DNA of 64,000 nt, taken from positions 519,641 through 583,640 of the forward strand of contig CAVQQD010000002.1 in NCBI GenBank assembly GCA_963714975.1, in the 5' to 3' direction. The stretch's first letter is position 1; the number at the start of each line of letters is the position of its first letter. Both the position numbers and the translations under genes were made by a program. Below the pieces are notes generated by a model. The model made no database searches and was not told the origin of the DNA. It saw only the letters and a program-made list of their open reading frames with translations. This document shows positions 29,229 to 60,899 of the stretch, piece after piece. Source of the DNA: an uncultured Gammaproteobacteria bacterium. GTDB taxonomy: Bacteria > Pseudomonadota > Gammaproteobacteria > JAURND01.

Positions 29229-29305
29229 GATATTATCATTTGAAACTCTGAGCAGGATCCCCATATTATGGTTAATGAACTTAACTCTTGAAATCGGAGG
29301 AAATA

Positions 29306-31898
29306 ATGCCACGACTAGATAAATTCACCACCTCATTTCAAAATGCCATCATGGATGCCAAATCCATGGCGTTAGGCTTAGATAACCAAGTGATCGAACC
29401 CTTGCATCTAATGAAAGCTTTACTCGAGCAAGAGGCAGGAACAGTGCCGGCTTTGTTAGAACAAGCAGGGGTCAATCTTAATCAATTCCAAGCAAAGCTA
29501 CAGCAAGCATTAGATCGTGTACCCAAAGTGGAGGGAGCTGGCGGTGAATTAATGATTTCTCATGAATTAGATCGCTTGCTGAATGTGATGGATAAATTAG
29601 CGCGAGAGCGAAATGATGCTTTTATTGCTTCTGAACTTTTTGTAGTCGCTGCTCTCAAGGATCGAGGTGAATTAGGGCGAATTCTGCGAGAATCAGGCGC
29701 CAATGAAGCAGCGTTATTAAGCGCCATTGATAAAATTCGAGGAGGAGAGCGAGTGGAAAATCCAGAATCTGAAGGTCAACGTCAAGCCTTGGAAAAATAT
29801 ACGATTGATTTAACTGCCATGGCGAGAAAGGGTAAATTAGATCCAGTCATTGGTCGTGATGCGGTGATTATGCGCGTGATTCAAGTGTTGCAACGTCGCA
29901 CTAAAAATAATCCCGTGTTGATTGGCGAACCTGGGGTGGGTAAAACAGCTATTGTGGAAGGATTGGCGCAGCGTATTGTCAATGGTGAAGTTCCTGAGGC
30001 GATGAAAAATAAACGCATTTTGGCCTTAGACATGGGTGCATTAATTGCCGGGGCGAAATTTCGTGGTGAATTTGAAGAACGTTTAAAAGCGGTGTTAAAA
30101 GATTTAGCCAAACAAGAAGGCCAAATTATTTTATTTATTGATGAATTGCATACGATGGTGGGGGCGGGAAAAGCAGAAGGTGCCATGGATGCAGGTAATA
30201 TGTTAAAACCTGCTTTAGCACGAGGTGAATTGCATTGTGTTGGCGCGACCACATTAGATGAATATCGCAAATATATTGAAAAAGATGCAGCGTTAGAACG
30301 TCGTTTTCAAAAAGTATTAGTGGATGAACCCAGCGTTGAGGATACCATTGCTATTTTGCGTGGCTTAAAAGAACGTTATGAAGTGCATCATGGCGTAGAA
30401 ATTACTGATCCTGCCATTGTCGCTGCGGCCACCTTATCGCATCGTTATATTACTGATCGAAATTTGCCTGATAAAGCCATTGATTTAATGGATGAAGCAG
30501 CCAGTCAAATTCGCATGGAAATTGATTCCAAACCGGAAGAAATGGATCGATTAGAACGACGCTTAATTCAATTAAAAATTGAACGCGAGGCTTTGAAAAA
30601 AGAAAAAGATGAAGCCACTAAAAAACGCTTAGAACGATTTAGAAACAGAAATTCAAGCAAATTAGAAAAAGAATATGCGGATTTAGAAGAAGATTTGGAA
30701 AGCAGAAAAAGCCAGCTTGCAAGGCACGCAGCAAATTAAAGAAGCACTGGAACAAGCGCAGTGTAGAATTAGAAGCTGCACGTCGTGCCGGTGATTTAGC
30801 GCGCATGTCGGAATTACAATATGGCCGTATTCCTGAGTTAGAAAAACAATTAGCGAAGCTGCCAATTCAGCAGAAAGAAAGGCAACATAAATTATTACGT
30901 AATAAAGTGACTGAAGAAGAAATTGCTGAAGTTGTTTCAAAATGGACGCATATTCCTGTAGCAAAAATGATGGAAGGTGAGCGAGAAAAATTATTGCATA
31001 TGGAAGAAGCGTTGCATAAACGTGTTGATTGGTCAAGATGAAGCGATTAAAGTCGTTTCTAATGCGATTCGCCGTTCGCGCGCTGGGTTGTCTGATCCTA
31101 ATCGACCCATTGGTTCTTTTTTATTTTTGGGCCCCACCGGTGTTGGTAAAACTGAATTATGTAAGGCCTTAGCTGGATTTTTATTTGATACTGAAGAGGC
31201 GATGGTGCGTATTGATATGTCTGAATTTATGGAAAAACATTCGGTGGCGCGATTAATTGGCGCGCCTCCTGGTTATGTAGGTTATGAAGAAGGTGGTTAT
31301 TTAACCGAAGCAGTGCGTCGTCAGACCTTATTCGTGTGATTTTGTTAGATGAAATTGAAAAAGCACATACGGATGTATTTAATATTTTATTGCAAGTGTT
31401 AGATGATGGTCGTTTAACCGATGGTCAAGGGCGCACAGTTGATTTTCGTAATACGGTGATGGTCATGACTTCAAATTTAGGTTCGCATTTGATTCAAGAA
31501 TTGTAGCTGACGAAAGTTATACAGTAATGAAAAAAGCCGTGATGGAAATTGTTAGCAAACATTTTCGTCCTGAATTTATTAATCGAATTGATGAAATGGT
31601 GGTATTTCATCCCTTGGATAAAGAGCAGATTACCAGGATTGCTGCGTTGCAAATGGAGCAAGTGCGAAAACGCCTGCAGGAAAAAGAATTACAATTACAG
31701 CTTGATGAGCCTATTTTAGATTTCTTAGCTGATGCGGGCTATGATCCTGTTTATGGCGCCAGACCATTGAAACGTGCCATCCAGCAATATCTAGAAAATC
31801 CTTTGGCGCAGGATATTTTGTCCGGAAAATTTTTGCCAGGGGACACTATCGTGGTGAGTATGCGTGATCGTGGTGGGTTAAGGTTTGAGAAGGGATAA
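29306..31898 (+). pseudogene. clpB: Chaperone ClpB, disrupted by six single-base indels
   Basis: RBS GGAGGAAATA then '[24 protein letters not shown]'. Four ORF pieces (29306-30739, 30805-31041, 30977-31339, 31527-31898) plus an untracked piece (31336-31506 '[41 protein letters not shown]'). Indels reconstructed at about 30695, 30765, 31033, 31318, 31332 and 31506. No in-frame nonsense or obvious missense decay otherwise. Confidence 0.8.
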
Positions 31899-31905
31899 GT
31901 CCCGA

Positions 31906-32941
31906 TCAAGAAGGAGTACCAGGAATACTTGTCACATGTTGTTCTGGTGGAGATGGTTTGTCACGTGAGCTATCTTTGGCGACGACAGATGGTGGGCTTT
32001 GGCGATGCTTAAATAAATCGGTTAGGTTGTTTATTTTCTGTAGTGCGGGTACAGAAATTTCCAGGTCAGGCAGGCCTGAGTATTTTATCTCGAGTTTTTT
32101 TGGTGATAAATTTTGGGATGCTTCATACTCACGCAGGAGTCTGATCTTTGATTTCTCAAATAACACAGCATCAATCTCTGGAATAAAAGGGACCAGGCCG
32201 ATTAAATTGAGGCTGTCTTCTATTTGCGTCAGGTGTTTAACGATGAGTTTAAATTGTTCTGGGGTAAATGCTCGGCGAAATTCTGCAACCGCTTTAAAGA
32301 TTATAAGTCCATAGGAAAGCCAGTCTATATTGTTTTGTGTTTTTCTTTGGTGCATATTTATTTTTTTTAAATATTTAGCGCAGAAATAAAAATAATCTGG
32401 GTCATGTTGTAATTTTTCACATTTTTTTGTCAAATCATCCAGGAAATGAGATTGTCTATTTAGAAAATTCTGCCAAGATTCGTTTTGGTTCATCCGATAG
32501 GGCTTACTATCAAAGAAAGCAGCTATTTGCTCGAGTTTTTCGTGAAGAGCTTGGAATTGCTGTAGAGAAAGTGAAGGTGTTAGATCAAAATAGTCAATAC
32601 CATACTGTTTAAATAAATTACGCAGCTGTCGGGCACTGAAAACATTGGAGATTAGCACTTTCTCGGTGATATAGGCAATTAACGTACTGTATTTTTCTTT
32701 ACTTGGTTTATCGGATTCCAGCTCGCTCGCGAGCTTCACAGAGTGCTCTTAAGTAATGAAAAACGATATAAGTTTCAGACCGATGTTTTTCACTATCATG
32801 AGCTAAGGGTTTTGTCAGATTATCAATCCATAATTGGGCTTCATTTAAAGAATAGTTTAAAGCATTTGCAAAAAAAATAGATTTTGGTTGAAAATCATGA
32901 GGATTGATGGTTGGCAAATGGGGAGGTTTTCGTTGTTCCAT
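31906..32941 (-). CDS. Hypothetical protein (about 345 aa), apparently one gene split by a frameshift near 32725
   Basis: ORFs 32708-32941 (AGGAG RBS, 'MEQRKPPHLPTINPHDF...') and 31906-32739 abut in adjacent frames ('...HYLRALCEA' / 'SELESDKPSKEKY...'). No recognised domain. Confidence 0.4.
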
Positions 32942-35988: not shown

Positions 35989-37386
<1,398 letters not shown>

Positions 37387-37533: not shown

Positions 37534-38325
37534 ATGACGATTGCCATCTGTGCTGAGGATCTTAGTGTTGGATATAAAAATCAAGCAGTGGTTTCTGCCT
37601 TTTGTGGCCACATTGAGCAAGGTCAATTTGTCGGGGTATTTGGGGCCAATGGGGCAGGGAAAACCACATTATTACAATGTGCACTTGGCTTGCTAAAGCC
37701 CGTGGCGGGCCGACTTTTGGTTTTAGGAAAGGTCCCGCGAGTGGGAAACCGGAATATCGGTTATGTGCCGCAAGTTTTGCCTGCAATCAATGTGCCCATT
37801 ACGGGGCGGAGCTTTTTATTGGCAATTCTGCAAGGCAATCAATGGGGGTTACCTATAGTAAGGGCAAAGCACCGGCAGGAAGTTGATCGGGTCGTGGAAC
37901 TTGTGGGCTCGGAACATTATATTAATCGGCCCTTCATGCAACTTTCAGGCGGCGAGAAGCGCCGCTTATTATTGGCTCAAGCTTTGTTGAATAAACCGAA
38001 AATTTTGTTGCTCGATGAACCCTTGGCAAATTTAGACCCACATTATCAATATGTGCTTATTGATTTGTTGAAAAGAATCCACCGAGAGTTAGGTATCACG
38101 GTTTTACTGACTGCTCACGATGTCAATCCCTTGCTCGAGGTGATGACGCAGGTGCTGTATTTAGCGCGAGGTAATGCGGCAATGGGGAGAGTCGAGGAGG
38201 TGATCACCAGCCAAGCCTTATCTTCTCTTTATGGTTCCCCAATAGAGGTAATTCGGCTTAAAGGTCGGATTCTTGTGATCCACAGTGCTACAGGACAACA
38301 TGAAGATGCTGCATGTCATCATTGA
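37534..38325 (+). CDS. znuC: Metal (Zn/Mn-type) ABC transporter ATP-binding protein
   Basis: Walker A 'GANGAGKTTL', signature 'LSGGEKRR', Walker B 'LLLDEP'; followed by an ABC-3 permease. No substrate-binding protein gene adjacent. Confidence 0.7.
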   Translation: MTIAICAEDLSVGYKNQAVVSAFCGHIEQGQFVGVFGANGAGKTTLLQCALGLLKPVAGRLLVLGKVPRVGNRNIGYVPQVLPAINVPITGRSFLLAILQGNQWGLPIVRAKHRQEVDRVVELVGSEHYINRPFMQLSGGEKRRLLLAQALLNKPKILLLDEPLANLDPHYQYVLIDLLKRIHRELGITVLLTAHDVNPLLEVMTQVLYLARGNAAMGRVEEVITSQALSSLYGSPIEVIRLKGRILVIHSATGQHEDAACHH

Positions 38326-39139
38326 TTTCTTTACTCTGCCATTTCAATACGATTTTATGCGCAATGCATTTTGGGCTGGCAGCATGGCTGCGATCGTAGC
38401 AAGCTTAGTGGGTTTTTTTGTGGTGGTGCGACAAATTGGTTTTGCGGCCCATGCTTTAGGACATATCAGCTTTGCCGGCGCTTGTGGGGCGATTCTGTTG
38501 GGTTGGTTGCCCATTATTGGCCAGCTGGTTGTTACTTTAGGCGCAGGCATTATTATGGGCAGTATGGGTCGACGTTTGAACGAAAAGGATACCATTATCG
38601 GGGTGACATTAGCATTGGCTTTGGGAGTGGGTGTGTTGTTGCTACATTTTTTTCGTTCCTATAGCGGTCAGGCCAATAGTATTTTATTTGGTGATTTATT
38701 GGGCGTATCCACTTCCGCTTTGCGTTGGATGGCTTCTTTGATGCTATTAGCGATTTTGGGTTTGGGGTTGCTAGCGCGCAGGCTGTGGTTTGCAAGTTTA
38801 GTGCCGACATTAGCTCAGGCGAAAAGTATTTCATTAACCTGGATTTCACTACTATTTTTTTCTATCATGGCGCTAGCAATTACTTTAGCTAGTCAGGTTG
38901 TTGGAATTTTATTAGTATTTACCCTAATTGTGGGCCCTCCTGCCATTGCCTTGCAGTGGTCGAAAAATTTTTGGAGTGCCATGGGCGTATGTTGTGCTAC
39001 CGGAGTTTTAATCGTATGGCTAGCGGTTTATTTATCTTATTATACTGACTGGCCAGTTAGCTTTTGGATTAGTACAGCTGTATTCGTGCTTTATGTGATA
39101 GGGGTACTTTTGCGAGGCCAGGTAGTTTCTGAAGCGTAA
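38303..39139 (+). CDS. znuB: ABC-3 family metal transporter permease
   Basis: Eight predicted TM segments; 'FAAHALGHISFAGACGAIL' ABC-3 motif. Confidence 0.7.
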   Translation, partial: KMLHVIIDFFTLPFQYDFMRNAFWAGSMAAIVASLVGFFVVVRQIGFAAHALGHISFAGACGAILLGWLPIIGQLVVTLGAGIIMGSMGRRLNEKDTIIGVTLALALGVGVLLLHFFRSYSGQANSILFGDLLGVSTSALRWMASLMLLAILGLGLLARRLWFASLVPTLAQAKSISLTWISLLFFSIMALAITLASQVVGILLVFTLIVGPPAIALQWSKNFWSAMGVCCATGVLIVWLAVYLSYYTDWPVSFWISTAVFVLYVIGVLLRGQVVSEA

Positions 39140-39146
39140 CTAAATC

Positions 39147-39204
39147 CCCTCCCCCCATAAGCTTTTGCATTATTCCTTCTCCCCTGGTGGGAGAAGGAAT
39201 AATG
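39147..39204. repeat. Dispersed palindromic element (gggagaagg family) ending in GGAGAAGGAATAATG upstream of pstS
   Basis: ttccttctcccctggtgggagaaggaataatg; creates an out-of-frame ORF (39187-39417) overlapping the pstS start. Confidence 0.7.
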
Positions 39205-39229: not shown

Positions 39230-40260
39230 ATGAAAATTTTATTTTGGTTAACAGGACTAGCACTGCTAGTCTCAAGTGCTGCCTTAGCGGACACCATATT
39301 AACTGGAGCGGGTGCCACTTTCCCTTATCCACTTTACGTCAAATGGGCACAGGCCTATCAGAAGAAAATCGCTGTGCGTTTAAATTATCAACCTATTGGT
39401 TCGGGTGGCGGTATTAATCAGATACAAGCTAAAACAGTGGATTTTGGCGCTTCAGATAAGCCTTTATCGAAAGAAGAGTTAACAGCTAGTCACTTAATCC
39501 AATTTCCTACAGTGGTGGGTGGGGTGGTTCCTGTGATTAATTTGCTTGGAATCCCCAGTGGACAGCTGAAACTTTCAGGTCCAGTCTTAGCCAATATTTA
39601 TTTAGGTAAAATTAAAAAATGGAATGACCCAGCCATTGTGGCTTTAAATCCACAGCTTTCCCTACCGAATAAAGGTATTGTAGTAGTCCATCGTTCTGAT
39701 GGTTCAGGGACAAGCTATCTCTTTACCTACTATTTAAGTCAGGTAAGCCCAGAATGGCAAACGCGGGTAGGTAGTAATACAGCAGTGGCTTGGCCTGTGG
39801 GAATTGGCGGGAAAGGTAATGAAGGGGTAGCTTCCTATACCCAGCGGGTCAATGGCAGTATTGGTTATGTTGAGTATGTCTATGCGGCACAAAATAAACT
39901 GAACTATGTGCAATTGATTAATCAAGCAGGCCATGCAGTTTCTCCTTCATTAGAATCTTTTGAAGCAGCGGTAAGTCAGCTACTTGGGATTCAGAGCAGC
40001 AATTTGCTGGCAGCATTACCAATAGCCCAGGTGCAGATAGTTGGCCTATTACTGGCGCCACATTTATCCTGATGCAAACTGAACAAGATAATCCTGAAAA
40101 AGCCAAGGCAGTATTGGCATTCTTTGCTTGGGCCTATAAAGAGGGACAAGCAATGACCAAGGAATTAGATTATGTTCCTTTAGAAGATAAGGAAATTCAG
40201 CTAATTCAAGCCTCTTGGAAGCAAAATATTAAAGACAAGGCAGGAAACCCCATTTGGTAA
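39230..40260 (+). CDS. pstS: Phosphate ABC transporter substrate-binding protein PstS, apparent single-base deletion frameshift near 39967
   Basis: CAGGAG RBS; signal peptide; PstS sequence. The C-terminal 95 aa continue in the +1 frame ('...ASGKSATWDSEQQFAGSITNSPGADSWPITGATFILMQTEQD...[10 protein letters not shown]'). Two ORFs in the track (39230-40072, 40072-40260). Confidence 0.75.
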
Positions 40261-42113
40261 CTAAATTGTCACAGCAATTCCAAACCCAGCGCCGCTTCGA
40301 TCAACTGTTATTGGCAGTTGCTCTTTTCTTTGCCATTGTTTTACTCGTATTAGCTGGCTGTATTGTTTTTAAATTGTATCAGGCTAGCATCCCAAGCCTC
40401 CAAGCCTTTGGTTTGAGGTTTTTGATTAGCAGCGAATGGAATCCGGTAACCGAGCAGTTTGGTGCTTTAGTCGCAATTTTAGGGACTTTAACTACAGCTT
40501 TTATTGCGCTTTTGCTAGGAATCCCGATTAGCTTTGGTATTGCTGTATTTCTTACTGAGCTAGCTCCGACTATGCTTCGTCGCCCGTTACGCATTTTAAT
40601 TGAATTACTTGCTGGAATTCCCAGTATTATTTATGGCATGTGGGGACTGTTTATTTTTGCTCCCCTTTTCGCAGACACAGTCCAGCCTTGGTTAATCGAA
40701 CATTTGGGTAGTAGACCCCTAATTGGCCCATTTTTCCAAGGGGTCCCAATGGGAATTGGGATATTAACCGCTGGAATTGTACTCAGTATTATGGTGATTC
40801 CTTTTATTGCCTCGGTAATGCGTGATGTTTTTGAGATTGTACCTGATCTACTTAAAGAATCTGCCTATGCTTTGGGCGCCACTCGTTGGGAAGTAGTGTG
40901 GAATGTGATCCTACCCTATTCTCGTATTGGTGTTGTGGGTGGAATTATTTTGGGATTAGGCCGTGCTTTGGGAGAGACAATGGCAGTCGCTTTTGTGATT
41001 GGCAATTCACATGCATTATCCGCCTCAATTTTGATGCCAGGCAGCAGCATTTCCTCAGTATTAGCCAATGAATTTACTGAGGCCACTGGAAAAATTTATA
41101 GCTCCTCTTTAAGCGAATTAGGGTTAATTTTGTTTGCGATCACTTTAGTGGTTTTTGTGTGTGCCAAGTTATTGACGCAGAGGTTAAAAAAGATCCTCCT
41201 CTCTCATGCCTTCTCCCCTTGTGGGAGAAGGCGCCGAAGGCGGATGAGGGGAAAACCGGAAAAAAATATGACACTACTGTATATTAAACGCAGATTAGTT
41301 AATTTTATTAATCTATCCCTTGCGACCTTGGCTATGCTGATTGGCCTATTGTGGCTAAGCTGGATTTTATTTAGCCTGGTTCAAAATGGCTTACCAGGTT
41401 TCTCTTGGGCACTTTTTACCCAGATTACCCAAGCACCGGGTGGCCAAGGTGGGTTATTAAATGCCATTATTGGCAGTTTATTAATCGTGTTTTTTGCGGT
41501 CATCATTGGTGCTCCCATCGGTTTATTAGTGGGCACTTATCTTGCCGAGTTTGGAAAATATAGCCGATTTGCCCGCATCGTACGCTTTGTTAATGATATT
41601 TTATTGAGTGCTCCGTCGATTATTTTAGGTTTGTTTATTTATCAACTCTATGTCGTCAATGTGCAACATTTTTCAGGCTGGGCTGGTTCTTTTGCCTTAG
41701 CATTCTTAGTGGTGCCTATTGTCGTGCGCATTACCGAAGATATGTTTCTATTAGTGCCTAGTTCATTGCGAGAAGCGGCGGCTGCTTTAGGTGCTCCGCG
41801 GTGGAAAGTAATTGCTGAAATTGTGCTACGGGTGTCGAGAACGGGGGTGATCACTGGGATTCTATTAGCTTTAGCCAGGATTAGCGGTGAGACAGCCCCC
41901 TTGTTATTTACTGCGTTAAATAACCAATTTTTGAGCTTTAATATGAACCACCCCATGGCCAATTTACCTTCAGTAATTTTTCAGTATGCCATGAGTCCTT
42001 ATGCCGATTGGCACCAATTAGCATGGGCAGGAGCATTACTCATTACCGCCTGTGTTTTGGGATTGAATATTATCGTGAGAGTTGTGTTTAAACAAAAGCC
42101 GCCAATCACTTAG
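40254..42113 (+). CDS. pstCA: PstC-PstA phosphate permease as one 619-aa ORF, joined through an in-frame repeat element
   Basis: Residues 1-300 align to PstC and 330-619 to PstA ('[34 protein letters not shown]...'). Junction '[24 protein letters not shown]' is encoded by the repeat at 41205-41262 with no stop codon. Confidence 0.8.
41205..41262. repeat. Dispersed palindromic element (gggagaagg family) occupying the pstC/pstA junction, open in frame
   Basis: ctctcatgccttctccccttgtgggagaaggcgccgaaggcggatgaggggaaaacc. Confidence 0.75.
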
Positions 42114-42121
42114 GGGTTTGC

Positions 42122-42883
42122 ATGAAACAAGACGAAAAGATCAGGACGCGCGATTTAAATTTTTACTATGCCAAGTTTCGTGCGCTTAAAAATATTAATG
42201 TGAGCGTCATCAAAAATCATGTGACAGCACTGATCGGCCCCTCAGGTTGCGGCAAATCGACTTTGTTACGCACTTTTAATCGCATGTATGAGTTATATGA
42301 TGAACAACACGCTTTAGGGGAAGTGTGGTTAGATCAGGAAAATATTCTAACGCCTCGCTATGATTTAAATCGATTGCGCAGCCGAGTTGGGATGGTATTT
42401 CAAAAACCAACGCCATTTCCTATGTCGATTTTTGATAATGTCGCCTTTGGGGTAAAGTTATATGAAAATTTAAGCCATGTGGAGTTAGCTGCCCGAGTTG
42501 AATGGGCACTTCGCAAGGCTGCCTTATGGAGAGAAGTAAAGGATATATTAAAACTAAGTGGCCTAGGACTTTCGGGTGGTCAGCAGCAACGGCTTTGTAT
42601 TGCTAGAGCCATCGCGGTAAGACCTGAGGTTATTTTATTAGATGAACCAACTTCGGCATTAGACCCGCTCTCTACCGCTCGTATTGAAGAATTAATTCGG
42701 GAATTAAAAGACGATTATACTATTTGCATCGTCACGCATAATATGCACCAAGCAAAAAGAATTTCCGATTACACCGCATTTATGTATTTAGGGCGAATGA
42801 TTGAATACAATAAAACTGAAGTAATTTTTTCTAACCCAACAGAGCAAGCAACCAAAGATTTCATTTCGGGAAAAGTGGGATAA
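42122..42883 (+). CDS. pstB: Phosphate ABC transporter ATP-binding protein
   Basis: 'GPSGCGKST', '[14 protein letters not shown]', '[10 protein letters not shown]'. Confidence 0.9.
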
Positions 42884-42888
42884 TTTTT

Positions 42889-43575
42889 ATGCAAGCAAAT
42901 CTGGGCATTTTAATTGTCGAAGATGAGGAACCCATTAAGGAAATGCTTAAACGTTGTTTAGAAATGGCGGATTATCGTGTCATGGAAGCTACAGATACAA
43001 CTCAAGCTGAAAAGCGAATTCAGCAAGAGATGCCGGATTTATTATTGTTAGATTGGATGCTGCCTGGCCTAAGTGGCATTGATTATGTGCAAGTGTTACG
43101 CAAGAGCGCTCTAACCGCACATTTACCTATTATTTTGTTAACAGCTCGTGCCGAAGAAGAAAGTAAGATCCGCGGCTTAGATATGGGTGCGGATGATTAT
43201 GTCACTAAGCCTTTTTCACCACGAGAACTTATTACGCGCATCAAAACGGTGCTGCGACGTGGTCCTTTGGTGGAGGCAAATGCTATTTTGATGGTGCGAG
43301 GTTTAATGGTTGATACTCAGTCCTGCCAGGTGACACTGGCAGGAAGGAAATTATCGCTCACCACCGACAATTATCAGCTGTTGCTTTTTTTTATGCAGCA
43401 CCCTCGAAAAGTTATTTCTCGTGAAAGTTTATTAATGCATGTTTGGGGTGGAGATAAAGGCGCCAGTGATCGCAGTGTCGATGTTCAGATATTGCGCTTG
43501 CGCAAGATATTAGCACAGCATGGCTGTGATGATTTGATTCACACGGTAAGAGGTTTGGGATACCAATTTCGCTGA
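42889..43575 (+). CDS. phoB: Phosphate regulon response regulator PhoB (OmpR family)
   Basis: Receiver 'ILIVEDEEPIKEML...LLDWMLPGLSG' and winged-helix output domain; 228 aa. It follows pstB directly with no phoU between. Confidence 0.85.
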   Translation: MQANLGILIVEDEEPIKEMLKRCLEMADYRVMEATDTTQAEKRIQQEMPDLLLLDWMLPGLSGIDYVQVLRKSALTAHLPIILLTARAEEESKIRGLDMGADDYVTKPFSPRELITRIKTVLRRGPLVEANAILMVRGLMVDTQSCQVTLAGRKLSLTTDNYQLLLFFMQHPRKVISRESLLMHVWGGDKGASDRSVDVQILRLRKILAQHGCDDLIHTVRGLGYQFR

Positions 43576-44324
43576 TGCCAATGAATAGTAATGAACTCGT
43601 GTTGACCTCTTTAATATTTTTAGATACCCAATTGCGTCTCTTGGAAAGTATGCGGCAAGATTTTGTCGCGAATGTTTCTCATGAATTACGTACGCCGCTT
43701 ACCGTATTTCATGGCTATTTAGAAATGCTTTTGGATCTGACAAATCAACCAGGTAATGAGCAACATCAAATCTTAGAGCAAATGTATCAACAAAGTTTAC
43801 GCATGAGCCAGTTGATTGAAGATTTGTTGCTTTTGTCACGTTTGGATAGTTATGTCAGTAAAGATAAATGCAGTTCAGTTGATGTGCCTTATTTACTTAA
43901 AACCATTGCTGAAGATGCTCGAGTGCTTAGTCGAGAGCAACAGCACAAAATCGAACTCTATATCGATGATCAATTAAAAATCCAAGGGATTGAGCGTGAA
44001 TTAAGCAGTGCATTTTCCAATCTTATTATTAATGCTATTAATTATACCCCGATGGGCGGTGAAATTAAGATTCGTTGGTTTAAGCAACAGCATCAGGCCT
44101 ACCTGGAAGTCATTGATACCGGTATTGGTATTGCGCCCGAACATATTCCTCGACTGACCGAGCGATTTTATCGAGTAGACAAGGCTCGTTCACGCAGCAC
44201 CGGTGGTACTGGTTTAGGCTTGGCCATTGTGAAACATGTTTTGTTACGACATAAAGCCAATTTAAAAATTGCCAGCGAGTTAGGTCAGGGCAGTAGCTTT
44301 ACCTGCATTTTTCCGCTGCTCTAG
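43575..44324 (+). CDS. phoR: PhoR-like histidine kinase consisting only of DHp and catalytic domains (no TM, charged or PAS sensor region)
   Basis: ORF begins at the phoB stop. H-box 'VSHELRTPLTVFHGYLEML' lies about 30 aa from the N-terminus; N, G1 and G2 boxes present; 249 aa against about 430 aa for canonical PhoR. Confidence 0.7.
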   Translation: MPMNSNELVLTSLIFLDTQLRLLESMRQDFVANVSHELRTPLTVFHGYLEMLLDLTNQPGNEQHQILEQMYQQSLRMSQLIEDLLLLSRLDSYVSKDKCSSVDVPYLLKTIAEDARVLSREQQHKIELYIDDQLKIQGIERELSSAFSNLIINAINYTPMGGEIKIRWFKQQHQAYLEVIDTGIGIAPEHIPRLTERFYRVDKARSRSTGGTGLGLAIVKHVLLRHKANLKIASELGQGSSFTCIFPLL

Positions 44325-44400: not shown

Positions 44401-44805
44401 ATGATTGAAACAATTCAAAAATTGAAACAATTAAGCTTAGAAAAAACTGCAGATTTTTCCCATTGCTTTAATATGTTTATGGACCTTGCGGCAGAGCCGC
44501 AATTTGCTCAAGCAGGGCAAGCACTGCAAAGCAATAAAGAATTTTTCCAAGCGTTACTGGCGCCAGTAACTAATTTTTTTGGCGAAACTATTACTATGAC
44601 TACTTTGTTTCCAGTCAGCGTCCAGCAATATCATTTAATTCATGGCTTTGCCAATCTTTCGAATCACTATATGGTTGCCTTTTATTTTTTTGATGATATT
44701 CAATGTGGAATAGCTTGTGCTTCTAAACTAGGTGAGATACGTAGCGAATTTTTTAGAATTACCCTGATAGAAACTAGTTCTTCGCCTTCGTCGCTGCTGC
44801 ATTAA
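44401..44805 (+). CDS. Hypothetical protein
   Basis: 134-aa ORF in the accessory islet; no recognised domain. Confidence 0.35.
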   Translation: MIETIQKLKQLSLEKTADFSHCFNMFMDLAAEPQFAQAGQALQSNKEFFQALLAPVTNFFGETITMTTLFPVSVQQYHLIHGFANLSNHYMVAFYFFDDIQCGIACASKLGEIRSEFFRITLIETSSSPSSLLH

Positions 44806-44847: not shown

Positions 44848-44946
44848 ACGTCGTCCCGCGACTTGATCGCGGGATCCATGCCATTGAGACGCACGAAACG
44901 TTAACTTCCCTGCTCCCTGGATTCCAGCTTCCATGCTGGGACGACG
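44848..44946. repeat. About 100-bp 'cgtcgtccc...gggacgacg' family element
   Basis: aacgtcgtcccgcgacttgatcgcgggatccatgccattgagacgcacgaaacgttaacttccctgctccctggattccagcttccatgctgggacgacg. Confidence 0.8.
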
Positions 44947-45061
44947 AGGCTTTGGAAATTCACCGGGAATTGCTGGACTTGCATTGCTTAAATCGCTCAT
45001 CTCAACTAGAATTCCTAATCAGATAACTTTGTTTTTAATTTTTAAAAGAAGAAAATACAGT

Positions 45062-45991
45062 ATGTCAGAACAAACCGGTAATCCTATTTCACAGCATTCA
45101 TCTGGCAGCGGGTTTACCGCAGAGTTCATTCCAATCTCTGAACTTCAAAAATTTCTTCCGCTATTCAATAAAGAATTAAGCGAAAAAGTTTTTTCATACC
45201 ATTTAATTCCTCAACCTTTTCCAGTCCAATTCGCATTTGCTTGTGATTTTTTTAAAGCTTTTGTTAATGGAAATCCATTACCCGAATCAATACCTAATTT
45301 TTTTGAAAAGTGGTTTGATTCTGGGCGATATAAATTGGCACATGGTGATGATTCAATTTTTACATTGCAAGATGAGAAAGGGCAAAATAAATCAAGAGGG
45401 CGCCGTGTCTTTGACTTATTTATTAAATTTGATAATTGGGGAGAAAGAGGGGTAACATTTGAAAAATATTTCAAAATTACTAACGGTTTACAACAACATC
45501 TCACCGTAGTACAAGAATTATTGAATGTTCTTAAACGTTATGACCCACAAGGTTCGCAAGCAGATGAGAAATTACAAAACGTAACAGCTGCTCCCTCATT
45601 GATTACTTCTTTTCAATGGTTGTCATCTGAAAGTCTAAAAACTCCATTTTTGCCAGAGAAAAAATTTACAGGTATGGCTGGACAAACCAACATTTCTATT
45701 CCACGGAATTTACCTGAAGGTCAGTCGTTCTCAAAGTTACCTCCAAGCTCTGAACTGGATACAAAAACTTCATTTTTATCAAAGAAAAAATTTATAGGTA
45801 TGGTTGGCTTAATCAGCCTTGGGGGCTTGATTACCACAGCTTTAATGGCCAAAGATCGATTGATGATCGAGGTTTATATTGCAGTCGTGATATTGGAAAT
45901 TTTATTAACCACTTTTTTTATAGGTTTAACTGGTAAAAAAGTGTTAGATGATTGCCGTGAAATTTCCAGTCAGAACAATAGCATGGCTTAA
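45062..45991 (+). CDS. Hypothetical protein with C-terminal transmembrane segments (effector-like)
   Basis: Start at 'MSEQTGNPISQHSSGSG'; C-terminal 'MVGLISLGGLITTALMA' and 'VYIAVVILEILLTTFFIGL' TM helices; internal duplication 'LPEKKFTGMAGQT' / 'LSKKKFIGMVGLI'. Confidence 0.4.
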   Translation: MSEQTGNPISQHSSGSGFTAEFIPISELQKFLPLFNKELSEKVFSYHLIPQPFPVQFAFACDFFKAFVNGNPLPESIPNFFEKWFDSGRYKLAHGDDSIFTLQDEKGQNKSRGRRVFDLFIKFDNWGERGVTFEKYFKITNGLQQHLTVVQELLNVLKRYDPQGSQADEKLQNVTAAPSLITSFQWLSSESLKTPFLPEKKFTGMAGQTNISIPRNLPEGQSFSKLPPSSELDTKTSFLSKKKFIGMVGLISLGGLITTALMAKDRLMIEVYIAVVILEILLTTFFIGLTGKKVLDDCREISSQNNSMA

Positions 45992-49429: not shown

Positions 49430-50511
49430 TTAACGCAACTTCAGCGAAGCGAGTCCGCATAGCACCAGCATGAAGGTAATAATCCAAAACCGCACGATTA
49501 CTCGAGGTTCAGGCCAGCCTTTGAGCTCAAAATGGTGATGAAGGGGAGCCATTTTAAAAATACGTTTACCGGTGAGCTTAAATGAAGCGACCTGTAATAT
49601 CACCGAAAGCGTTTCTATTACAAATACCCCGCCCATAATAAAGAGCACTAATTCTTGGCGAACAATTACTGCCACAATACCTAAAGCAGCGCCTAGTCCT
49701 AAAGCGCCTACATCACCCATAAATACCTGGGCAGGATAAGTGTTGAACCATAAAAAGCCTAAGCCTGCTCCGACCAGAGCGGCGCAAAAGACTGCGACTT
49801 CTCCTGCACCAGGGACATAGGGAATGGTTAAATATTTAGAAAATTCAAAATTACCACTTAAATAAGCAAAAATAGCCATAGCGCCAGCGACCATTACTGT
49901 GGGCAGAATGGCCAGCCCATCTAGGCCATCAGTCAGGTTGACGGCATTACTGGTGCCGACAATCACAAAATAAGCCAATAAAATATACAACAAACCTAAG
50001 TTAATACTGACATTCTTGAGATAGGGAATTAACAACTGGGTTTCAGCAGGTGTTTTCGCCATGTAGTAGAGAATAACAGCGATGGTAATACCCAATATAG
50101 ATTGCCAAAGATATTTCCAGCGCGCTGGTAAACCACTGGGTGATTTCTTGCTAAGTTTTAGATAATCATCTAACCATCCAATAATGCCAAATCCCAGCAT
50201 ACCAAACAGGGTTAGCCAAATGTAGGGATTGGCTAAATACCCCACAACAAAATGCTGGCGCTGATAGCAATGAGGATTAGGGTGCCTCCCATAGTGGGTG
50301 TGCCGGCTTTGGAGAAATGGCTCTTCGGTCCATCGTTGCGCACCACTTGCCCGACTTGATGATGACTGAGCGCATCAATCATTTTGGGGCCGACAATCAG
50401 AGCGATCACCAGCGCAGTGAGCGCGGCGAGAATCGAGCGAAAAGTGAGATATTGAAAAACCCGAAAGCCTTCGTAATAGTGTTGTAAAAATTGCGTTAGC
50501 CAAAGTAACAT
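49430..50511 (-). CDS. mraY: Phospho-N-acetylmuramoyl-pentapeptide transferase; apparent -1 error in a G4 run near 50246
   Basis: Two ORFs (50233-50511, 49430-50245) align to MraY. Adding one G to 'ttgtggggtattta' restores '...[14 protein letters not shown]...'. Confidence 0.85.
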
Positions 50512-50512
50512 A

Positions 50513-51926
50513 TTAAGCCTCTCCTTCTAAAGCAGCGACAATTTTCCCATTTTGCATCGAGCGCGATCCTTTAATCAATGCGGTCGTTTGAGCATTAAGT
50601 TGTAATTTCAAGGCAGCAATTAATTGCTGTTGTTCAGAAAAATGTTGGGCTTGCTGACCAAAGGCTGCTACTGCTAAGCGGCTCAACTCACCATAGGCAA
50701 ATAATTGCGTAATGCCCAAACGCTGTGCTTCATAGCCAAGCAATTTTAATGAAATATTCGGGCCCATAGGAGCCTAATTCTTTCATGTCGGCAAGTACCA
50801 AAATTTTAATTCCGGGCATATGAGCTAATACTTCAATAGCTGCTTGGGCTGAGCGTGGATTGGCATTGTAACTATCATCAATAATCCGTGCGCCATTGGT
50901 TAAGTATTTTATTTGTAAGCGTTTGTTTACCGCTTGAGTATTTTCCAAGCCCTGTTTTATCGCAGTCAATGGTATATTCAGTGCGCAAGCGCAAGCAGCT
51001 GCTGCCAAGGCATTGGCAATATTATGTTTTCCTAGCAGAGGCAGTTGAATAAAAATGGTTCCATAGGGGGTATGTAGAGTAAATTCAGGATTTCCTTCGG
51101 GATTTATTAAGGGACTTTCTGCCCAAATAGATGCTTTTTTCTGAAGGCCAAAGTGGAGAATTTTCTTGGTTGGCACGAGAGATTCCCAATAGGGGGCAAA
51201 GTGATCGTCAGCATTAATGATGGCAATTCCAGTCTCATCGAGTCCGCGAAAAATTTCGCCTTTTGCCTGTGCTACTCCTTCTAGAGTTTGTACTCCTTGC
51301 AAATGAGCAGGTGCTGCATTAGTAATTAGGGCAATGGTCGGATGAGCGAGCTGCGATAAATGAGCAATTTCACCAAAATGATTCATCCCTATTTCAATCA
51401 CGGCATATTGATGATCAGAATTTAATCCCAATAGGGTCAGCGGGACACCGATTTCATTATTAAAACTTTTTTCGCTAGCCAAAACTTTGTTGGATCCCTC
51501 GCTGCGCTCGGGATGACACCCCTGCTCGGGATGACACGCCTGCTCGGGATGACCCCCCCCCTGCTGCAGAATGCTGGCGAGCATAGAGCGCACGGTAGTT
51601 TTACCACAACTACCGGTGATGCCGATCATTGGCAGCGTAAATTGTTGCCGATGAAAACGCGCAAATTGTCCCAGTGCCTGAATCGTGTCGTTGACTTGTA
51701 GCTGTGGTAGCGGGCAGGGCAGGGGGTGCTGGACCAAGGCGGCAGCGGCCTGCTGTTGTTTTGCCATGGCAATAAAATCATGGCCATCGAAATGAGGGCC
51801 TTTGATGGCGACAAATAATTCTCCAGGTTGTAAGCTGCGGGTATCCGTGCTCACACCTTGAAAACAGACATCTGCGCCTAACAGTTGGCCGCTAAGTAAA
51901 TGGCTAAGACTTGAAAGTTGTATCAT
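50513..51926 (-). CDS. murF: UDP-MurNAc-pentapeptide synthetase MurF; apparent single-base indel near 50760, plus an in-frame repeat insertion
   Basis: ORFs 50730-51926 and 50513-50767 match the MurF N- and C-terminal parts. Frame change at 'tatgggcccgaat' (ggg/ccc runs). The 51492-51561 element is translated '[23 protein letters not shown]' just after the P-loop 'GSCGKTT'. Confidence 0.85.
51492..51561. repeat. gtcatcccga-family element with three partial 15-bp tandem units and a C9 homopolymer, in frame inside murF
   Basis: ggatccctcgctgcgctcgggatgacacccctgctcgggatgacacgcctgctcgggatgaccccccccc; C-run 51553-51561. Confidence 0.8.
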
Positions 51927-56520: not shown

Positions 56521-56976
56521 TTATAACGAAAAAGACTGCAGTTCCGGTGGCGTCAGTTCCTCTTGGGATTCTTCAGACAACCATCCGTCTCGTCCCGACT
56601 GCCAATTTTTCTCGCTCCAAAGCTCAAATTTTTTCCCTTGCCCTACCAAAATGACTTGTTTTTCGAGGTGGGCATAATCACGTAATAAAGTAGGCAATAA
56701 GAATCGACCATTACTATCCAGTTCTATTTCAGTGGCATGTCCAATCAGCAGACGTTGAATTCGTCTGGTGGCTTTATGAAAACTCGGTAGTGCATCGATT
56801 TTTGCTTCAATTAACTCCCATTCGGGGAGTGGATAAAGTAATAAGCAAGCTGCTTGTGTATCGATAGTGAGAATAAGCTGTCCCTTGGATAGGGTTTCCA
56901 GACGAGCACGATAGCGAGCGGGTATCGCTAAACGTCCTTTAGGGTCCAGACTTATTAAGTTTATTCCTCGGAACAC
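56521..56976 (-). CDS. mraZ: Transcriptional regulator MraZ
   Basis: 'MFRGINLISLDPKGRLAIPARYR' duplicated MraZ domain; 151 aa. Confidence 0.9.
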   Translation of the reverse strand: MFRGINLISLDPKGRLAIPARYRARLETLSKGQLILTIDTQAACLLLYPLPEWELIEAKIDALPSFHKATRRIQRLLIGHATEIELDSNGRFLLPTLLRDYAHLEKQVILVGQGKKFELWSEKNWQSGRDGWLSEESQEELTPPELQSFSL

Positions 56977-58322
56977 AACTTTACTCCACTATCACCCACT
57001 TTTCTCCACATTATGGCACTAAATTTCCAAAATGCAAGAAGGTGCGCAATGCGCACCACCCGAATTTCCTTCTCCCCTTGTGGGAGAAGGAATAATGACG
57101 GACAGTCAAGCTCGCTTGATAATCCCCATGTCCCCACAAGACATGCTACGAGTTTTTGGGGAATGGTGATTTTTTTTGGGGGGGGGAAAGACTCTGGGTT
57201 GAGGAGATTTTCCTCCGATCTGGATATAACTTTTGGATCCTTTGGTATTTTAAAAACTTGTTGCGCTTTTTGTTCTTGGATTTGTTGAAATTGTTTTTCT
57301 CGTTCTTCTTCTTCATCATCAGAGTGGTAGGATGCAGCATTACTCATCAGGCTTTCTCTGCTTATGGTAGGGTATACCCCCTTGAAGGTTCGTATATAGG
57401 GGGGGCTGGTAGGATCCTGGTCGATGCGGCGTTGGCTTAGATTTAGATTTGAATCATCCGTCGTTCTTGGTTGCACTTCTGGGGTTTTGGGGATAGGGAG
57501 TGTTTCAAGTAGGGGGATATAGCGTGGTCTCGAGAGCAAAGTTTTATAAGCAATTTCGGCCCCTTCGCCAAACAGGCCATGCGCAAGGCCATAACTTAAA
57601 TCTTTTCCCACTAGACTGAGCCTAGTTTTCCAAGGCAGATGTTCATCAATCTCGGTGGTCGAGATTTTGCATGGCTCGGTGAATTGTGCATAAATACTAT
57701 CGGTAATAATTCGGGCAATGAGTATGGTGATAGAGAGCATCATTAGATAGTGCATTTCTGTGGATAGAGAGTTTGAGCTAATATTTAGTTTTCTTTTAAT
57801 AAACTCGAGAGAAAGTTGCGTAGATTGATAGTCTTTAGCGAGCCAAATTGCAGGAATTGCCGTGACGACAAAATCAAGCGTGTACTCGCTGAGTTTTTTT
57901 TCATAATTTTTATTTTGTAAATAGATTTCCTCATCGGATATACGCGCTAGTTGCGTATGCAGGTCTTTATACTCAGCACTTGCTATAGCAATTTTATAGG
58001 CATTAATAGCCTCAATTTTCCTTTTTCGCTGATGCGCTAATTTGTGCAGGGCATTGTCCTTGTTGAAATAACGATAAAGCGTTTTGAATAAAGAAAGGCA
58101 GGAACCTAGAAAAGGTAAACTAAGATTTAAAATACTATGCAGACCCACGCTAATCCAGGATGCCCACCCTGGTGCTGGGATATTAGCTTGTGCTTCTAGT
58201 TGCGCTTGCTGGTGTGGCTCGGAAAGTTGTGGTTCTTTCCCAGTGGTTGGGGCTTTGGGAACCTCTGGGTCATAGTTATCACTAGAATCAGACCTTGATT
58301 TTTCTTCTTTGATGTTTTCCAA
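56961..58322 (-). CDS. Hypothetical acidic coiled-coil protein (effector-like) containing a repeat element and T8/G9 homopolymer tracts near its 3' end
   Basis: 453-aa uninterrupted ORF; acidic 'SDDEEEEREKQFQQIQEQKAQQ'; TM-like segments; repeat 57062-57097 translated 'SLFLLPQGEKEI'; tract 57170-57186 translated 'PPPKKI'. Confidence 0.45.
   Translation of the reverse strand: MENIKEEKSRSDSSDNYDPEVPKAPTTGKEPQLSEPHQQAQLEAQANIPAPGWASWISVGLHSILNLSLPFLGSCLSLFKTLYRYFNKDNALHKLAHQRKRKIEAINAYKIAIASAEYKDLHTQLARISDEEIYLQNKNYEKKLSEYTLDFVVTAIPAIWLAKDYQSTQLSLEFIKRKLNISSNSLSTEMHYLMMLSITILIARIITDSIYAQFTEPCKISTTEIDEHLPWKTRLSLVGKDLSYGLAHGLFGEGAEIAYKTLLSRPRYIPLLETLPIPKTPEVQPRTTDDSNLNLSQRRIDQDPTSPPYIRTFKGVYPTISRESLMSNAASYHSDDEEEEREKQFQQIQEQKAQQVFKIPKDPKVISRSEENLLNPESFPPPKKITIPQKLVACLVGTWGLSSELDCPSLFLLPQGEKEIRVVRIAHLLAFWKFSAIMWRKVGDSGVKLCSEE
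57062..57097. repeat. Dispersed palindromic element (gggagaagg family) ending GGAGAAGGAATAATG, inside CDS 56961-58322
   Basis: ttccttctccccttgtgggagaaggaataatg, near-identical to 39175-39204. Confidence 0.75.
57170..57186. repeat. Adjacent homopolymers T8 then G9 within a coding region
   Basis: gattttttttgggggggggaaag read directly. Confidence 0.9.
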
Positions 58323-58625: not shown

Positions 58626-58733
58626 CCTGGGGGGAGGGAATAAAGCCGAGGCTAAAAAAACATTGGAAAAAAATCCTAATTTTTGGTAAATTATTGCCAT
58701 TCAGATTATTTAAAATTAAGAGGGGTGAGATAT

Positions 58734-60899
58734 ATGGCAGAGCAGCCTGAGCAAAAGCAGGGCGAGAACAAAGAAGAAAATAGTGGGTCAGGGGTGTTTG
58801 AGCTAGTGCTTAATGATTCAGCAACCCCTGGAGGGCCTGAGCCACCAAAGGGGACCACCGATCCGTCTATTATCATTTCTATCGACCCTAACAGCCCAAT
58901 TACACCTCTGAACAAGGATTTCAGGCCTTTGAGGGGTGTGGTTAATCCCGATGCTAATCTGCCTCTTACTGGTAAACTTAAATCCGAAGTTAAAGAAAAA
59001 AAGGAACCTTACCCGGATCTGTTCGAGCACAAATACCCATCATTCTCTTTTTTCCACCCGTCTCATGAGCAACCTACAGAAATAAAAGTCCAGGGGGATG
59101 ACATTGCCTCATTAAAAGCTCTCGCCGAAAAGATTAATAAAGGCGATTGGTACGAGGCAAAGAGTTATGTTGTTAATGGTCAGTGGAAAGATTTACGAGA
59201 TAATCCTGAGCCATTTGTCGCATTTCTAACACAATTTGTAGGCTCGATGGGTAAGTATTCAGCTTCTTTTACTCAGCGCTTGTTACTATTACGTGAGATG
59301 CGGACCAATCTTGTTTTTAGTCCATTCTTTAACTGCCAGGAGAAAAATTATCCTATATTCTATGCAGCATTAGCATCTAACCAAGGAAAAGTAATCGACG
59401 AACTAATACGAGATAATCATAGCGATGTCACAGAATATATTCTTCACTGTGCTGTATATAAAAATAATGTACCTATGTTAGATCATTTGTTTGGAACAGT
59501 GAAACACCAGCGTGATCTGATCCGGAGAGCTTTAAGCATAGCCGTAGAGCATGAAAAAATTCAAGGTTTTGCTAGCCTACTACAAAAATTGGACTTGAAT
59601 TTACCGGAGCATCATCAAATTATCTCGGATCAGGTTTCTAGGATTGCCTTGGGAAATTTACCCCCACGCACGAAAAATAAATTTCAAGTTTTATTGTTGA
59701 AAAAGTTACAAAAAGCTCCTTTTACATCAAGCGATACTAACTTAGCGGGTCAGGCGCCTTCTCCGTTCAAATTGGTTTTAGACTATTTCAAGTCAGATGC
59801 ACCAGCTGATGATTATTGGGATCAAGTGATCCCTTATGTCATGCAATCGCCGGAAGAAGAGAAAAAAAACGGCATGGCCACAGAACACAAAGAGGAATCA
59901 AGTTATCTAAAGATTCCAGCGAAGAAAGAAAGGGCAGGGAAATTACGTTGCAGTCAAGCTCTTGCTGCAGCTGCACAAGCCCCAATTGAGGGTGAACATA
60001 GTTTTTTTGAAAAATTAGTAAAGTATGTGCGTGAGAAAATTGCCATTGAGCTAAATTACCATGAAAACTTTCATATTGTGGGGGGTATACCGGAAGAACT
60101 AGAACGTAAGCCTGGTGTTCTCTATGTTGTACTAGGTTCTTCACAGGTAGAAGTTGCTTCTGCGAAAGCTAAACAAAAAATAGTAATGAAAGATGGGGCG
60201 ATAATCCAAGCTGTAACTGAGATTGTGGGAAATCAAAAGGGTCAAGATGCAATTGGCAATATTATATCAATATGTGGTTTTGTTCCTGATGGTTTTACTA
60301 AAGCTAAGAAAGAACTTATTTCTTACGTCACTGAAGAACTTGACTATGTAATAGAGTCTAGTGCTAATAATTCTGGGTTCCATTTCCTCCCTGATTATGC
60401 CACTCGATTAATGAATGTAAAACAGCAATTGGAAGAAGAATTGGCTCGTGATTGGGATACCGCTCATAGAAAACGCTGGGCAGCTCTAACTGCGGCTTTT
60501 GCCAAAATGGGAAGTTTGCACGATAGATGGCATCATCGTAGAGCGCCTGCTCCTTCGTTCCATGAATTTATGTTGGCTTATCAGGAGATTTTGCAGCGCT
60601 GTGATGCTTTACCAGAATTAATGCAGCGTAAAAAATGGACTAAGTTAGGCTTTTATTGGGGGTTGCCAATAATGTTGGCAATACCAGGAATCTGCATTTT
60701 AGGGATACCGCCTGTTACTGATGCGCTCATGAATTTAGTAAACGCACCTAGTCTTACTACTTTTATTACGTATAACATTTTTCCAGTATATACTTTCCTC
60801 CTTACTGCATATGCCGTGGTAAGGAAATATGTGGAGGAAAATAAATTGTTAGAGGATCCTTTGCTTAGCCAGGCCAAAGCGCTGAGTGCGCCAGGGTGA
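58734..60899 (+). CDS. Large hypothetical protein with ankyrin-like repeats and C-terminal hydrophobic segments (candidate secreted effector)
   Basis: Start 'MAEQPEQKQGENKE' with a GAGGGGTGAG RBS upstream. 'PIFYAALASNQGKVIDELIRDNHSDV', 'YILHCAVYKNNVPMLDHLFG' and 'LIRRALSIAVEHEKIQGFASLLQKLD' fit the ANK pattern. C-terminal TM 'LGFYWGLPIMLAIPGICILGI' and 'ITYNIFPVYTFLLTAYAVV'. Confidence 0.5.
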   Translation: MAEQPEQKQGENKEENSGSGVFELVLNDSATPGGPEPPKGTTDPSIIISIDPNSPITPLNKDFRPLRGVVNPDANLPLTGKLKSEVKEKKEPYPDLFEHKYPSFSFFHPSHEQPTEIKVQGDDIASLKALAEKINKGDWYEAKSYVVNGQWKDLRDNPEPFVAFLTQFVGSMGKYSASFTQRLLLLREMRTNLVFSPFFNCQEKNYPIFYAALASNQGKVIDELIRDNHSDVTEYILHCAVYKNNVPMLDHLFGTVKHQRDLIRRALSIAVEHEKIQGFASLLQKLDLNLPEHHQIISDQVSRIALGNLPPRTKNKFQVLLLKKLQKAPFTSSDTNLAGQAPSPFKLVLDYFKSDAPADDYWDQVIPYVMQSPEEEKKNGMATEHKEESSYLKIPAKKERAGKLRCSQALAAAAQAPIEGEHSFFEKLVKYVREKIAIELNYHENFHIVGGIPEELERKPGVLYVVLGSSQVEVASAKAKQKIVMKDGAIIQAVTEIVGNQKGQDAIGNIISICGFVPDGFTKAKKELISYVTEELDYVIESSANNSGFHFLPDYATRLMNVKQQLEEELARDWDTAHRKRWAALTAAFAKMGSLHDRWHHRRAPAPSFHEFMLAYQEILQRCDALPELMQRKKWTKLGFYWGLPIMLAIPGICILGIPPVTDALMNLVNAPSLTTFITYNIFPVYTFLLTAYAVVRKYVEENKLLEDPLLSQAKALSAPG

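Follow-up and report, generated by a model that had tools for sequence, protein, structure and literature searches.

In Escherichia coli and Salmonella, binding of PhoU to the PAS domain in the histidine kinase PhoR is needed to repress PhoR at high phosphate, and breaking this contact derepresses the regulon (PMC4423584, PMC9239213, PMC13577022). In vitro, autophosphorylation and phosphorylation of the response regulator PhoB are carried out by a PhoR that lacks its membrane part (PMC5458449). How PhoR perceives phosphate is still unsettled: either the signal is internal, or it is external and reaches the PAS domain by way of PstSCAB and PhoU (PMC11389368). Here, we investigated the phosphate locus in a stretch of 64,000 nucleotides (contig CAVQQD010000002.1 of assembly GCA_963714975.1, from an uncultured gammaproteobacterium; the whole 64-kb stretch is called the window below), in which the genes are ordered pstS-pstC/A-pstB-phoB-phoR, with pstB, phoB and phoR head to tail, and in which phoR encodes a kinase of only 249 amino acids (aa). 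A preliminary description, made from the letters of the window, had drawn attention to the short PhoR and to a missing phoU, and had proposed that phosphate sensing is wired differently here or is constitutive. Our analysis shows that a conserved, catalytic-core-only PhoR is common and repeatedly evolved within one group of uncultured gammaproteobacteria, not a one-off oddity, and suggests that the protein is most likely a competent, kinase-biased and largely constitutive enzyme with no off-switch of the E. coli type.

Pfam identified only two domains in PhoR, HisKA and HATPase_c, corresponding to the DHp and CA domains (Table 1), and the phospho-acceptor histidine is residue 36, in agreement with the earlier estimate that the open reading frame (ORF) starts about 30 residues before the H box. 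When the protein is aligned with E. coli PhoR plus 22 homologues, all its catalytic motifs prove to be kept: H36, N149/N153, DTGIGI (G1), FYR (F) and GGTGLGLAIV (G2) are invariant with E. coli PhoR, to which the core is 48% identical. Against TIGR02966, the proteobacterial PhoR equivalog profile, the protein covers only positions 105-333 of 333, and it passes the curated cut-off despite having no PAS domain (342.4 versus 334.2 bits); against NF008235, the E. coli-type PhoR profile, it covers only positions 195-422 of 431 and scores 274.9 bits, below the cut-off of 390. Because the latter match begins at position 195, nothing here corresponds to the ~194 residues with which an E. coli-type PhoR begins and which hold its two membrane helices, charged region and PAS domain. 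No PAS domain N-terminal to the DHp domain (TIGR02966 positions 1-104) was found by Pfam, by the profiles, in the alignment or in the AlphaFold model, Pfam found no PF11808 N-terminal domain, and the protein has no hydrophobic N-terminal segment, membrane helices or charged region. The AlphaFold model (44 short homologues; mean predicted local distance difference test score 85) contains a helix at residues 5-55, a second helix at 62-91, one alpha/beta CA domain and nothing else. By sequence, PhoR aligns end to end with crystallised kinase cores (HK853, 2c2a, residues 12-244), and the best PDB match of its CA domain is the PhoR CA domain 8h70. The gene is thus a phoR by its curated score, its core motifs (HisKA plus HATPase_c) and its context, with phoB next to it and phosphate transport genes linked, and it lacks the classical PAS and membrane-anchor features. 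The absence of anchor, charged region and PAS domain claimed earlier is therefore borne out by Pfam, TIGR02966, NF008235 and the AlphaFold model alike, and the alignment with E. coli PhoR and its homologues, a comparison of the kind proposed earlier, likewise shows no PAS domain and conserved catalytic motifs.

The gene positions given by the preliminary description agree with the ORF list, and its account of the junctions needs two small corrections: phoB does follow pstB directly, and the spacer measures 5 nt (TTTTT), not 6 bp; and at the next junction, one base is common to the phoB stop and the phoR start (TGATG). The encoded PhoB consists of a receiver and a winged-helix domain, with the phospho-relay residues Asp55, Thr85 and Lys107 conserved. 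As had also been noted, no phoU lies between pstB and phoB; a tblastn search with E. coli PhoU (from NC_000913) returned nothing after pstB or anywhere in the window (best E = 0.65), and the locus thus departs from the PstSCAB-PhoU-PhoR arrangement, in which phoU follows pstB. We considered whether a PAS domain or a longer N-terminus might have been lost through misassembly or a miscalled start, given that this is a metagenome-type contig with other frameshifts. This is most improbable: the space upstream is taken up by phoB, whose stop overlaps the phoR start, so that, as the preliminary description had argued, no upstream PhoR exon can be hidden there by a frameshift, and the same protein has been recorded, without any difference, from a 1.24-Mb contig. 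A short PhoR that starts at the phoB stop is also found in the nearest relative, which comes from an independent contig, and there are 72 other short homologues. Across five independent contigs, the short phoR begins at or within 3 nt of the phoB end (4-nt overlap in L084, L086, L090 and L091; 2-nt gap in L089), which means that these starts are not miscalled.

We then asked how common the short form is. A homologue search covered 5.8 billion proteins, and the closest 120 were analysed, with the H box located in each; they comprise the identical 249-aa protein, on a contig of 1,240,461 bp, and 119 further homologues with 53-78% identity. In 73 of the 120 (232-277 aa), the phospho-acceptor histidine stands before residue 60 and there is no PAS domain; in 46 (mostly 329-357 aa), it stands at residues 80-150, behind a PAS domain and no membrane segment; and a single protein (433 aa, histidine at residue ~210) is full length with a PF11808 N-terminal domain. 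A membrane anchor is therefore missing in 119 of the 120 nearest homologues. These numbers change the standing of the earlier proposal in two respects. That the phosphate wiring is altered holds up insofar as the domain that receives repression in E. coli and Salmonella is gone, and the idea that this architecture is a peculiarity of one genome does not, with 73 of 120 homologues equally short. Its authors had allowed that a phoU elsewhere, together with short PhoR being the norm in the lineage, would speak against their view, and the second half of this is what we found (73/120 short, 119/120 anchor-less). Similar sequences in public databases are automatically annotated as PhoR or 'ATPase', and in the open-access literature text we found no description of a natural anchor-less or PAS-less PhoR or of its repeated origin; the natural short PhoR is an under-described variant of a known system.

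The short forms do not descend from one loss. In bootstrap neighbour-joining trees built from 229 columns of kinase-core alignment for 121 sequences (100 replicates), they were monophyletic in 0/100 trees, and the presence or absence of the PAS domain changed 7-15 times (median 10). In 89/100 replicates, P0004, a short form, fell together with the PAS-bearing P0005 and P0006, and in 100/100 the PAS-bearing P0098 did so with the short P0117 and P0058. Since a homologous PAS domain is unlikely to have been regained at the same position, we read these changes as at least seven independent losses, a count that is approximate because these are distance trees with weak deep nodes. The short gene is also maintained by selection. 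Compared with its nearest relative (P0002 on L091; 78% identical, 245 aa, short, beginning at the phoB stop), phoR shows a nonsynonymous divergence (dN) of 0.18-0.20 and a synonymous divergence (dS) of 1.9-2.9, and the resulting dN/dS of about 0.06-0.11, rough because dS is saturated, is far from neutral and indicates purifying selection.

How the PAS domain was lost can be partly read from the junctions. The coupled phoB-stop/phoR-start junction is retained both in the PAS-bearing L088 and in short loci with a 4-nt overlap, which means that the deletions must lie within phoR and have spared the start. The N-terminal leader of P0004 shows a significant resemblance to the pre-PAS leader of its relatives (4/300 shuffles reached the score), which speaks for an in-frame deletion within the gene. 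In the case of the window PhoR itself, a gap-affine alignment places residues 1-17, ending in LIFLD, on the first PAS strand (P-LIFLD), and the sequence from residue 18 (TQLRLLESMRQDF) falls on the PAS-DHp linker (D-V/I-TQLHHLERMRQDF). The LIFLD similarity is no better than that of composition-preserving shuffles, of which 100/300 (maximum score) and 27/300 (mean score) reach it, and a scar of the first PAS strand at this N-terminus is suggestive only.

The genomic contexts of relatives indicate which features belong to the clade. The closest PAS-bearing relatives with long contigs, L083 (ENA ERZ25039590, a 1.06-Mb contig) and L088 (GCA_035546635.1), both have the order pstS-pstC-pstA-pstB-phoB-phoR and lack phoU; within 10 kb of phoR, the contexts of seven relatives, these two included, hold no gene of the PhoU family. 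Because the PAS-bearing loci lack phoU as well, its absence predates the loss of the PAS domain and is a clade trait. Among the short-PhoR loci, L084 has phoB-phoR behind the gene of a PHO4-type phosphate transporter and close to icmS/icmT, L086 has phoBR alone on a contig matching Coxiella sp. DG_40, and in L089 and L090 the neighbour of phoBR is glmU or a gene for outer-membrane efflux; Dot/Icm genes or a Coxiella sp. label are seen in some of the short-PhoR relatives. Neighbours vary by lineage, and no conserved candidate partner gene stands next to the short phoBR across the loci examined. A Pho-box-like site, TGTCAT-N4-TTGTAA, occurs upstream of pstS in L083 (-134; 5378) and L088 (-74; 5360) and upstream of the PHO4 gene in the short-PhoR L084 (-60; 8251), and L086 has a similar site (TTGTAA or -TTGTCA type) at 11702 (minus strand), before an unannotated 289-aa gene adjoining phoR. 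The relaxed pattern has a background of only 7 matches in 378 kb on both strands, rising to 9 with the inclusion of L091 and of L085, which is another contig of the L084 locus. Short-PhoR systems are therefore, judging from L084 and L086, still found beside recognisable Pho-box-like sites, and we predict that TGTCAT-N4-TTGTAA is a clade-specific PhoB site. Two further observations concern the same neighbourhoods. The 289-aa gene adjoining phoR in the Coxiella sp. DG_40-like contig is a candidate new Pho-regulon gene, and the pho unit has genes of Zn/Mn-type ABC transporters directly upstream both in the window (znuC- and znuB-like, 37534-39139) and in L084 (ZnuA family, 7292-8188), which may be shared synteny or coincidence.

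We propose that the short PhoR would form a soluble dimer of DHp+CA subunits, autophosphorylate at His36 and transfer the phosphoryl group to Asp55 in PhoB, with which it is translationally coupled. Its probable ancestor is an already anchor-less PAS-DHp-CA PhoR, whose PAS domain would have been lost to a deletion within the gene that spared the coupled start. With the domain that would receive the "phosphate plentiful" signal from PhoU/PstB gone, and with no linked phoU, the kinase would not be switched off by the PhoU-PAS route, and its output would be set by the amounts of PhoB and PhoR and by any factor acting directly on the catalytic core, be it ATP/ADP or a partner protein. Reportedly, E. 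coli PhoR deletions between the membrane segment and the kinase core lead to constitutive Pho expression (Scholten and Tommassen in 1993, Yamada et al. in 1990). We infer that the protein is an active kinase with a kinase-biased default and without phosphate input, and constitutive signalling is plausible on this view. We give the reading that PhoR is functional, with its output set by expression level and by effects on the catalytic core, a probability of roughly 0.5.

Two rival accounts keep phosphate regulation. In the first, a phoU elsewhere in the genome, or PstB, would contact the DHp/CA core and toggle the kinase between kinase and phosphatase activity, the PAS domain being accessory. 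Salmonella PhoU also touches the CA domain of PhoR, its Arg184 contacting the kinase domain (PMC9239213), so that an unlinked PhoU could still regulate this kinase, a point that counts against constitutive output. In addition, docking with direct-coupling analysis put E. coli PhoU near the CA domain (PMC4423584), a PhoU-homologous protein, Lpg0584, is listed among uncharacterised proteins of Legionella pneumophila (PMC2908689), and a short PhoR under purifying selection in many lineages, beside intact Pho boxes, fits a regulated system. The lack of a phoU both in the window and within 10 kb of phoR in the seven relatives, and of any conserved linked partner, with the neighbours of the short phoBR differing by lineage, makes this account unlikely in our view. 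A related one, in which the DHp/CA core of the short PhoR is the entry point of the phosphate signal, conveyed by PstB, by an unlinked PhoU or by adenylate/phosphate status, so that anchor and PAS domain are dispensable, would explain at least seven PAS losses with the kinase under purifying selection; we hold it to be rather unlikely.

A third alternative is that the module is a decaying remnant, with the Pho/Pst genes being lost, the PAS deletion one more lesion and no signalling left. The preliminary description had missed three features that bear directly on whether the system senses phosphate, namely a frameshift in pstS, a fusion of pstC with pstA and the lack of a Pho box, and these, together with several features of PhoB, weigh against the functional reading preferred here. 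The pstS frameshift probably reflects the loss of one G from a GGG run (GCGGGT to GCGGT). It leaves a 280-aa product without the last fifth of the protein (TIGR00975 covers only positions 1-231 of 315), and tblastn with the L088 PstS returned two high-scoring segment pairs in different frames, the PstS proteins of L083 and L088 being intact at 347-348 aa. The gene pstC has no stop of its own, because a repetitive extragenic palindrome (REP)-like insert at nt 41209-41253 is translated in frame and joins it to pstA (junction 41195-41270); this insert is a ~46-bp element made up of CCTTCTCCCCTTGTGGGAGAAGG, a second small hairpin and GGATGAGGGG. The PstSCAB transporter is thus not encoded by four intact, separate genes here, although pstB is intact. 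No Pho-box-like site was found upstream of pstS, znuC or phoB with the E. coli consensus, the clade consensus or a relaxed half-site; the strict pattern TGTCA-N6-TGTNA has no match in the whole 64 kb, and the looser TGT[CA]A-N6-TGT[ACT]A has one, at 58904 (minus strand), which falls within the ORF 58683-60899, a long way from the pho genes. The first gene of the operon therefore lacks the upstream Pho box that L083, L088 and L084 possess.

PhoB departs from its relatives as well. It scores 275.3 bits against TIGR02154, below the cut-off of 296.2, although this is still its best-scoring family by a wide margin, and it is only 56% identical to the L088 PhoB, compared with 76-80% for PstC, PstA and PstB. 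Its recognition helix reads DRSVDVQILRLRK (VDVQILRLRK; window 43489-43527, residues 201-213), with Leu at a position where seven relatives, E. coli included, have Arg or Lys. This substitution may accompany the loss of a recognisable Pho box, and, taken with the score below cut-off, it suggests that the Pho system may be partly degenerate in this genome. The dN/dS of phoR, moreover, is an average over a long branch and compatible with recent relaxed selection. Elsewhere in the window, clpB is broken into several frames (Table 1); it is also fragmented in L083 and intact in L088, and either gene decay or a long-read error rate is evident in the window. Against decay stand the catalytic residues of PhoR and PhoB, all of which are intact, the dN/dS of about 0.06-0.11, and the persistence of the same short architecture in dozens of lineages. 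The pstS lesion could be either a real pseudogene or an assembly error, as a single G lost from a GGG run may well be, and an in-frame PstC-PstA fusion is topologically possible. On balance, we regard a remnant as a possibility to be taken seriously, though an unlikely one, and continue to favour a functional PhoR without an E. coli-type off-switch.

Table 1 Features of the phosphate locus and of related elements in the window
Feature	Position in window	Strand	Description
pstB	42122-42883	+	253 aa; phosphate ABC transporter ATPase; TIGR00972 376.6 bits versus cut-off 343.2; 78% identical to L088 PstB
phoB	42889-43575	+	228 aa; OmpR-type response regulator; TIGR02154
phoR	43575-44324	+	cytoplasmic minimal histidine kinase (249 aa), DHp + CA only
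DHp/HisKA domain of PhoR	43650-43850	+	residues 26-92; Pfam; H-box His36 codon 43680-43682
CA/HATPase_c domain of PhoR	43992-44318	+	residues 140-248; N, G1, F and G2 boxes intact
pstS	39230-40260	+	1-base frameshift near 39965-39975; frame 0 stop at 40072; C-terminal ~95 residues in other frame to 40260
pstC-pstA ORF	40254-42113	+	single ORF of 619 aa; pstC residues ~19-311, pstA ~353-614
REP-like 23-bp palindrome	39175-39197		in the 90-bp gap between znuB-like gene and pstS, where relatives carry the Pho box
REP-like 23-mer, all copies (starts)	6876, 14628, 15391, 19748, 21926, 39175, 41209, 51983, 57068		
clpB	29288-31906		pseudogene; N-terminal half one ORF (483 aa); C-terminal half in three frames versus L088 ClpB, with a stretch missing

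The palindrome found in the pstC-pstA insert, CCTTCTCCCC-TTGT-GGGAGAAGG, is present in 9 copies in the window versus 0 expected, and is often extended by a second small hairpin and GGATGAGGGG to a total of ~46 bp. The exact 23-mer was found in at least 120 metagenome contigs, almost all unrelated and with 57-72% G+C, often as inverted pairs ~100 bp apart, and the longer element reaches 94-98% identity over 45-55 bp to some contigs of very different base composition. Its use as a marker of this genome was rejected because it is pan-bacterial, with 79 of 80 loci being unrelated and of 57-72% G+C, and a PhoU match on the REP-bearing contig L123 was set aside as belonging to a 64%-GC organism rather than to this one.

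Several other parts of the window deserve mention. Two ORFs just downstream of phoR (44401-44805, 134 aa, and 44933-45991, 352 aa) are not conserved beside phoR in L091, and neither these nor the ORFs at 56961-58322 (minus strand, 453 aa) and 58683-60899 (plus strand, 738 aa) have a Pfam match; Rfam gave no match in the window. At 49430-51926 (minus strand), murF is 398 aa long, with Mur_ligase_C covered only over positions 2-52 of 127, and mraY is 271 aa compared with the usual ~360; ~485 bp without a long ORF separate the two, and frameshifts at this junction are possible. PurB (35989-37365, minus strand), unlike PhoR, has no identical entry among the proteins searched, its best match reaching 74% identity; the nearest named match is from an unclassified gammaproteobacterial metagenome-assembled genome, and cultured genera reach only 63-65%.

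For this genome alone the finding is modest, and its value lies in the family-wide pattern: an anchor-less and repeatedly PAS-less PhoR family, standing beside PhoB and Pho boxes, amounts to a deletion series made by evolution. If these kinases are constitutive, many host-associated or small-genome gammaproteobacteria would have abandoned phosphate sensing and retained expression that depends on PhoB; if they still respond to phosphate, the catalytic core must be where the signal comes in, and the short PhoR would offer a natural minimal system for the study of phosphate perception by PhoR.

Compared with the PhoR-PhoB system of E. coli and Salmonella, the locus has orthologous DHp and CA domains, an adjacent phoB and linked pstSCAB, and the Pho box of its relatives is of the same type, whereas it differs in having no membrane helices, charged region or PAS domain and no phoU after pstB, in that the off-switch from PhoU to PAS would be inoperable, and in that phoBR stands at the end of the pst operon rather than at a separate locus. 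Closest in organisation are the anchor-less PAS-DHp-CA proteins P0005 (L083) and P0006 (L088), which share the operon order, the lack of phoU, the coupled phoB/phoR and a core identity of 63-67%, but which, unlike the window, have a PAS domain of ~100 residues, an intact pstS, separate pstC and pstA and a Pho-box-like site upstream of pstS. Closest in architecture are KPJ68007.1 (Coxiella sp. DG_40, 237 aa) and MCD6047642.1 (241 aa), which consist of DHp and CA only, have an overlapping phoB stop and phoR start and are ~60% identical, but which occur in other contexts (PHO4-type transporter-phoB-phoR, or phoBR alone); since the trees place them in different branches, their PAS loss was apparently independent. 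By analogy only, the control that a short PhoR would need resembles that of NtrB (NRII) with PII, a soluble kinase whose balance between kinase and phosphatase is set by a partner binding the core, although NtrB, unlike the window PhoR, keeps an N-terminal PAS domain, and no partner is linked here. Finally, the protein has the same extent as engineered E. coli PhoR deletions and the HK853 core (2c2a), both being catalytically competent DHp+CA cores (PMC5458449), and in contrast to such artificial constructs its truncation is natural, conserved and under purifying selection.

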